Part shown: positions 4,616 through 5,394 of the stretch, in pieces | Layout of the letters: every line of letters begins with the position of its first letter | How positions within the stretch are numbered: position 1 is the first letter of the stretch | From: Botryllus schlosseri | Lineage: Eukaryota | Assembly: GCA_051294905.1 (NCBI GenBank) | Contig: JBPPKV010000031.1 | Span: forward strand, 62,001-126,000 | Direction of reading: 5' to 3' | Length of the DNA stretch: 64,000 nucleotides | The notes under the pieces: generated by a model | The model's database searches: none | What the model was told of the DNA's origin: nothing | The model's input: the letters and a program-made list of their open reading frames with translations, nothing else | Made by a program: the position numbers and the translations under genes

Positions 4616-5394
4616 ATGCGTCTGTTGATCATCCTCGCTATCGCCAGTGCCGCTTCGGCCGCATACTACAGCCTGAATTGCCCAGGACGTGAGTATACTG
4701 ACGGACGAGACGACAAGTCGCCGCGCACTGTAAAAGCTAGACTCTAATGTTGGCCGGTTCTATTCCAGTTAGCCGCAGCCGCTATGGTTGCCAATACGCC
4801 TGCGCCATCGCACGACCAACTAGCTACAGCCCATACTGCGGATACAGACGCCCTGTCGTCTCTTGTGCCAATTCCAACAGCAACGTCTGCGAATACATTT
4901 CCGGAAAGTACAGATGCATCAACGTGAGACGTCCATGCGTTCGTGCACCATGCACTCCTAAACGTCACTCCTACAGGACCGGAGGCTCCCGTAAGTAACT
5001 TTCGATCGATTCGCCCCATTTCCATACTGTTTCCCCTGGCCCGGGTTACTTTTGTTTCGGTTTACAATCTGTCCCGCAGTTGGTCGGTATTTTACACCAG
5101 GCCTCGTATGATTCCCGTGCCGTCGACAGTCATCGCAGGCTATCTGAGCTTGTGCGACACACAGCATGCGCGGTTCGCACGACGACTAGGAGCCTAAATA
5201 AGCCTCCTTCATCACTCGCGTAGCATATACTGGAGTCGTTCTCGATCTCGCGACCCATTCGTCGGTCATGCCGCGGTGAAGCGTCTGCCGCTGTGCTACT
5301 CGCCACCTACTCCTAAACCGGTCGATTTTCTTCAGGTTGCACCAGGGCCGCTCTCTGCAACTACAACCGTCACAGCTTCAGCACCCGTTGTTAG
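4616..5394 (+). CDS. Secreted 12-Cys, Arg/Tyr-rich small protein, 117 aa, copy 1 (P69S variant). Exons 4616-4688, 4769-4990, 5336-5394.
   Basis: ATG in CAAAATG context, followed by a signal-peptide-like MRLLIILAIASAASA. Intron 1 (80 nt) has donor GTGAGT at 4689, branch-like CTAAT at 4744 and acceptor TTCCAG at 4768. Intron 2 (345 nt) has donor GTAAGT at 4991 and acceptor TTTTCTTCAG at 5335. Both introns are phase 1 and join in frame (354 nt), giving an even Cys count of 12. TATA box upstream, AATAAA downstream. Confidence 0.88.

Follow-up and report, generated by a model that had tools for sequence, protein, structure and literature searches.

Among the described proteins closest in kind to the gene family reported here are the keratin-associated proteins (KRTAPs, of high-sulfur and high Gly-Tyr type) and the Cys/Pro-rich EDC proteins of amniotes. 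KRTAP and EDC proteins also combine low-complexity Cys, Tyr-Gly and Pro repeats with tandem arrays, bulk expression and expected cross-linking, and the KRTAP members are single-exon products that pack dead cells from the inside (PMC11816140). Whereas KRTAP/EDC genes are single-exon, intracellular and tied to an amniote locus, the family considered here has three coding exons in RNA and a hydrophobic leader that is predicted to be a signal peptide, and it lies in a tunicate genome. Arrays are present, as are repeats in three genes on C6, but the protein of the analysed window is itself non-repetitive. No sequence match connects the two groups; the likeness is one of kind only.

Within ascidians, the styelins and botryllin of styelids come from the same animal group and are likewise secreted and cationic, but they are bactericidal products of morula cells whose mature peptides are Cys-poor amphipathic helices with a KHK motif, botryllin being a 158-aa precursor that is cut to a 37-aa peptide (PMC9966394), whereas our protein has 117 aa and 12 Cys, is devoid of KHK and has a helical moment at the chance level. 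Rusticalin, a secreted ascidian protein, shares a Cys-rich part and a basic pI through its N-terminal repeats, but it is built from Cx6Cx6-7Cx8Cx7CC units and a peptidase domain (PMC6339383), neither of which is found here. The halogenated-DOPA holdfast peptides of Halocynthia roretzi would share a Tyr-derived chemistry that builds tunicate cuticle; they are, however, rich in Glu/Gln, Ser and Gly, not in Cys and Arg, and measure 1.5-2 kDa with ~50 mol% catechol (PMC13079984). The terminal CxC or CC pairs and family HMMs of defensins, big defensins and rusticalin are also missing, as our protein has no CC or CxC, its smallest Cys gap is 3, and its exons 1-2 gave 0 Pfam matches. Mussel foot protein 6 is a secreted, cationic, Tyr-rich protein of ~100 aa with ~11 Cys. 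It comes from a different phylum, has higher Tyr and Gly, and shows no sequence match to the family.

The locus under study lies in a 64,000-nt window of the genome of Botryllus schlosseri. We propose that its product is secreted and becomes cross-linked as a structural component of a tough outer coat.

Gene structure and transcription

The initial annotation had inferred a hidden three-exon gene, and RNA reads bear this out by spanning both junctions at the proposed GT-AG ends. In the raw RNA reads of run X23, 80,011 cross junction 4688>4769 and 87,748 cross junction 4990>5336, and no other joint listed exceeds 185 reads; depth is near 100 in the introns versus tens of thousands in the exons. 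Joining 4616-4688, 4769-4990 and 5336-5394 yields the expected 117-aa product. Recomputation returned the identical Cys spacing (9, 3, 11, 8, 7, 8, 6, 4, 13, 5, 10, Cys-terminal), and residues 16-117 have the claimed composition of 12 Cys, 15 Arg, 2 Lys, 1 Glu, 0 Asp and 11 Tyr, with a net charge of +16. The signal peptide is called from hydropathy and an A-x-A site only.

Each of three single-cell runs also supports junction 4990>5336, with 684, 14 and 7 reads, and junction 4688>4769 appears in just one of them (2 reads); exonic reads of all three were oriented as for a plus-strand transcript. Template-switch adapter ends place transcription starts at 4577 and 4581 (54,058 and 17,533 X23 reads), ~30 nt downstream of TATAAA at 4548, and TATA was the sole common motif when promoters were compared within the family. 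The window gene is real, spliced and very strongly transcribed.

Table 1 Features of the window (positions are those of the whole stretch)
Feature	Position	Strand	Remarks
Array	1..64000	+	unit 6,139-6,143 bp (~6,142 bp); 3-44 substitutions between units
TATA box	4548..4553	+	sequence; -30 to -33 in 6/6 family promoters examined
Exon 1	4577..4688	+	5' UTR, ATG at 4616, predicted signal peptide (~15 aa), first Cys, phase-1 donor
Intron 1, GT-AG, 80 nt	4689..4768	+	junction reads
Exon 2	4769..4990	+	8/12 Cys; Tyr/Arg/Pro/Ser-rich
Intron 2, GT-AG, 345 nt	4991..5335	+	87,748 X23 joint reads
Exon 3	5336..5470	+	coding to stop at 5394 (Arg-Cys-stop); AATAAA 5447-5452; depth declines near 5470
Copy 1, intact	4616..5394	+	Ser69 form
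Copy 2, intact	10757..11535	+	Pro69 form
Copy 3, intact	16899..17677	+	
Copy 4, intact	23041..23819	+	
Copy 5, intact	29182..29960	+	in most divergent unit
Copy 6, intact	35322..36100	+	
Copy 7, intact	41465..42243	+	
Copy 8, intact	47607..48385	+	
Copy 9, intact	53748..54526	+	
Copy 10, intact	59890..60668	+	

Positions 500-6100, of which the gene is the sole strongly transcribed part, take 1,003,484 of 12,895,792 X23 records (7.8%), and a paralogue with 8 Cys takes another 262,332 (2.0%). The family thereby supplies about a tenth of this RNA library. The counts in the single-cell runs, which include some reads on a decayed repeat, were 2,035 of 22,200,192 records (X21), 124 of 22,200,192 (X22) and 67 of 21,679,612 (X24). 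Because these runs nearly lack window records, expression appears to be confined to some sample type. Gene-ID look-ups in a published Botryllus atlas returned no entry for the family loci; assembled contigs from two other studies contain the 8-Cys paralogue in spliced form. At position 5365, the allele of the array on C12 was carried by 457 of 580 X21 reads versus 2,565 of 158,356 X23 reads, and subfamilies therefore differ by sample, through either genotype or regulation.

Secreted in bulk, a cationic protein with this Tyr content could also suit the feeding net of the endostyle or some other mucosal product, perhaps as an iodinated tyrosine carrier; zones of the endostyle are rich in iodine and peroxidase (PMC12212465). 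We regard this role as very unlikely, given the very low record share in the three single-cell runs and a protein with no mucin or vWF features.

Tandem array and copy number

The whole window is a head-to-tail array of ten intact gene copies (Table 1). Nine of the ten encode one protein; copy 1 differs at codon 69 (Ser vs Pro), and the Pro base at 4900 is found in 191,768 of 192,623 X23 reads. Across the genome, exon 2 has 23 matches at 99-100% on the window's contig, C31 (199 kb), a minimum because C31 starts within the array; C12 holds one match at 98% and eleven at 90-91%. The C31 flank aligns to C12 25.46-25.48 Mb at 94-98%, with no N in the stretches examined, and C31 therefore looks like another haplotype of the locus that is single-copy on C12. 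Judged from the assembly, array dose thus apparently differs between haplotypes, with 1 vs 23+ copies. An assembly artefact was considered and is disfavoured by the patchwork of 3-44 substitutions between units and by a unique 14-kb insertion at one junction; we favour a real array.

Several other elements were observed on this contig. The insertion, 14.2 kb long (C31 ~35.9-50.2 kb; L014:1946 to L015:6171), is bounded by terminal inverted repeats of 5.7 kb (99.8%) that end in AGTAGT, is flanked by a target duplication of 6 bp, and holds no ORF of more than 150 codons. Such ends are those of Polinton/Maverick elements. Each array unit contains a MITE-like element of ~445 bp with terminal inverted repeats (window 6139-6583), which also occurs at four other loci examined (77-79%). 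The decayed dispersed repeat (window ~1554-2810) is ~70% like stretches on C6, C12 and C31, and the low-level reads on it derive from other copies. The far end of C31 carries a near-exact 5-kb direct duplication (L055:6103-9998, L056:2675-7005), whose ORFs run to 303, 247 and up to 973 codons. Rfam gave 0 matches to one array unit.

Related genes in the genome

The genome contains at least 46 family loci: 35 with 12 Cys, 7 with 8 Cys, 1 broken and 3 of a repeat type. The seven 8-Cys genes (C6 4.95-5.04 Mb), modelled at six of the seven places (five loci and one divergent copy), encode 116-aa proteins that are richer in Ala, Pro and Val. They share with the window gene two phase-1 introns and the Arg-Cys-stop end, and their exon 2 is 41-47% identical to its own. 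As 0 of 2,000 shuffles reach the alignment score, homology of the 12-Cys and 8-Cys proteins is firm at the sequence level. The broken member (C6 6.03 Mb; L051:8351 to L006:5565) is interrupted in exon 2 by ~6 kb of inserted sequence and also carries an in-frame stop. C6 members (L009:5636-5703; L122 near 3800) have an extra intron just 3' of the stop codon, which the window gene does not have; RNA shows this intron spliced out in L009.

The three repeat-type genes (C6 6.08, 6.10 and 6.16 Mb) were found through a common 5' UTR motif. The pattern search gave 148 matches, of which 100 were listed; 30 of these, examined as loci, were no family members, and one further match among those listed led to the repeat-type genes. 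At the DNA level, their 5' UTR and signal exon match those of the 8-Cys genes at 76-79% identity. Two were modelled in full, as sequence predictions, giving proteins of 206 and 263 aa. Both genes have two introns in phase 1, and their last coding exon is Arg-rich and closes with Arg-Cys-stop. These proteins would contain three YGCSYG repeats (YGCSYGSG) and nine-residue Cys-Ala-Pro-Val intervals that number 7 or 13; their Cys totals, 19 and 25, are odd. Alignment of the window protein's mature region to them is unconvincing (35 of 2,000 shuffles reach the score; profile probability 0.5%), and the tie therefore rests on the leader exon and the gene layout; exon 3 DNA is not alike between the two. 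A search with a repeat-type exon gave four hits. We took P0004 (61% identity, from a contig) as a relative and rejected the other three as composition matches; the repeat-type branch thus probably exists in another genome.

Other features of the genome were recorded in passing. A single-exon FoxD gene lies ~25 kb before the C12 array (L018:7710-9419) and encodes, compared by eye, the same amino acid as the published Botryllus schlosseri FoxD probe at 79 of 80 codons. MULE/PHD, LINE, DDE and Plavaka transposon ORFs surround the C12 cluster (L019, L021, L022, L025), and C9 has two GH6 matches. Dispersed Hox-type and ParaHox homeoboxes are present, along with an enlarged group of mutually related homeoboxes, Not/Vent-like in type, on C3, C7, C8, C10 and C13 (L061, L062, L064, L065, L070, L072, L084). 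Searches of the genome for COX1 and for arthropod cuticle domains came back blank, the latter being a weak pointer. The GH6 matches and the dispersed homeoboxes point to a tunicate, and the FoxD likeness to B. schlosseri or a very close relative.

Database and literature searches

All sequence searches used single exons. Pfam returned 0 hits at E up to 10 for seven exon queries (window exons 1-2 and five paralogue exons), PDB had 0 matches to a single-exon query, and the ESM Atlas held no usable match to single-exon queries. An HMM built from eight exon-2 sequences found no family match among 1.84 billion representatives; its two hits were rejected as unrelated repeat proteins. A word-based homologue search with exon 2 gave no candidate, a weak result because the search missed even the 117-aa product of the gene itself and coverage of the animal is poor. 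In the full-text literature, searched by words and with most subscription journals outside its reach, there was no description of the family, and the searched literature offered no sequence-defined family of tunic cuticle proteins for comparison.

The earlier proposal of an undescribed secreted family needed in large amounts accords with the lack of a family match to single exons, the 23 near-identical copies and the 7.8% share of one run. Its suggestion of a new disulfide framework is doubtful: a 47%-identical paralogue has 8 Cys, and same-leader relatives have 19-25 Cys in repeats. As far as tested, the sequences indicate an undescribed, lineage-restricted gene family, whose kind would be that of tandemly amplified Cys/Tyr/Pro-rich cross-linking proteins.

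Protein chemistry and selection

The mature chain has a predicted mass of 11.5 kDa and a pI of 9.8 at its net charge of +16. Leu, Ile, Phe, Trp and Met make up 7% of it. Cys (~12%) is evenly spread, with four residues per third, whereas Tyr (11%) is skewed to the N-terminal side and charge to the C-terminal side. Dibasic pairs occur at 51, 78 and 89. AlphaFold of exon 2 (8 rows) gave a pLDDT of 44, too low for an informative fold.

Between the two 12-Cys arrays, dN/dS was 0.30 (14 non-synonymous and 13 synonymous changes) while the introns were 78-81% alike, which indicates conservation, not diversification. Closer pairs gave values of 0.31-0.82 from few changes; those of 0.70-0.82 weigh against the coat reading.

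The charge, the pI and the 12 Cys would also suit a cationic protein of the blood-cell defence, which morula cells would keep in their granules and discharge at microbes, perhaps once its tyrosines have been modified. Ascidian morula cells produce cationic and DOPA-containing peptides (PMC5465252, PMC9966394). The dibasic pairs could serve as processing sites, and across the family the leader is conserved while the mature parts diverge. Toxin and antimicrobial superfamilies, too, typically place one leader on varied cargo, and this counts against the coat reading. However, an amphipathic helix beyond chance was not found (168 of 500 shuffles reached the helical moment), nor was a defensin-type family match in Pfam with single exons or a pro-piece like that of the 158-aa botryllin precursor. 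The copies are homogenised at a dN/dS of 0.30, and the repeat-type relatives look structural. On balance, we consider a defence function rather unlikely.

Less probable still is a mussel-foot-type adhesive or a thiol-rich redox partner at ampullae or larval papillae. The Tyr/Arg richness and ~12% Cys resemble those of mussel mfp-3 and mfp-6, and tunicate holdfasts employ DOPA peptides (PMC13079984), but Tyr reaches just 11%, and the ascidian adhesive proteins named so far in PMC12817120 (ASP1, AAP1, APAP1/2) are of 47-65 kDa.

An even Cys count would further permit a protease inhibitor or toxin of new fold, held compact by six disulfides; the first four Cys have TIL-like spacing and one Pro-Cys-x-Arg-Ala-Pro-Cys loop is like inhibitor loops. 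Yet Pfam, PDB and the Atlas gave no match, and four of the Cys are missing from the expressed C6 paralogue. The spacings and HMMs of TIL, Kazal, Kunitz, antistasin and WAP domains were not recovered by Pfam (exon queries) or PDB, nor do the spacings agree. We hold such a protein to be highly improbable. Ascidians are filter feeders, and a venom, as the initial annotation had offered among its options, is unlikely in such an animal; ascidians are not known to have a venom apparatus.

A proposed role in an extracellular coat

Among the functions named at the outset, defence and adhesion are less probable, and extracorporeal coats, mentioned there in passing, fit best as a cross-linked structural role. 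We therefore propose, with a probability of roughly 0.55, that the protein is a secreted, cross-linked structural component of an extracellular coat, either the tunic cuticle or an egg or larval coat. The structural reading is suggested by the bulk dosage, the plastic and evenly spaced Cys, the little core, the odd-Cys repeat-type relatives and the conservation; the Cys pattern is called plastic because clearly homologous proteins have 12 vs 8 Cys. In the repeat-type relatives, the Cys/Tyr-Gly/Pro repeat make-up matches that of cross-linked structural proteins such as KRTAP and EDC (PMC11816140).

With regard to the site, ascidian cuticle is protein-rich and autofluorescent, which its authors attribute to aromatic, dityrosine-type cross-links (PMC13079984), and ascidian phenol oxidases have been proposed to sclerotise the tunic (PMC9395347). 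On these grounds the cuticle, or else an egg or larval coat, would be the likeliest site. We infer the protein-rich tunic cuticle to be most likely the coat concerned.

Signal cleavage would release a secreted 11.5-kDa polycation, as predicted, whose chains may bind a polyanionic matrix through Arg and then set via inter-chain disulfides and oxidative links between tyrosines. With so many tandem copies, a single cell type or stage would have the dose needed to deposit the material quickly and in bulk. Two further points speak against a coat protein: 12 and 8 are even numbers of Cys, as suits disulfides within one chain, and the Halocynthia holdfast peptides, at 1.5-2 kDa and ~50 mol% catechol (PMC13079984), are unlike the window protein. 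A more far-reaching version, which we offer only tentatively, is that the family represents the missing hardening proteins of tunicate cuticle, which in this sister group of vertebrates would be convergent on the Cys/Tyr proteins of hair and feather; in the cells that produce it, about one transcript in ten would be its own, at a dose set by a haplotype-variable array.

Significance

For the tunic cuticle, the literature cited here names short DOPA peptides and oxidases and no bulk protein genes. A family that makes up ~10% of one RNA library of a model chordate, matches no database family and sits in near-identical arrays provides a direct probe for the question of cuticle proteins, which also concerns underwater materials and fouling. 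If the protein instead served blood-cell defence, it would be a new antimicrobial scaffold. The apparent difference of 1 vs 23+ copies would amount to a natural dosage experiment.
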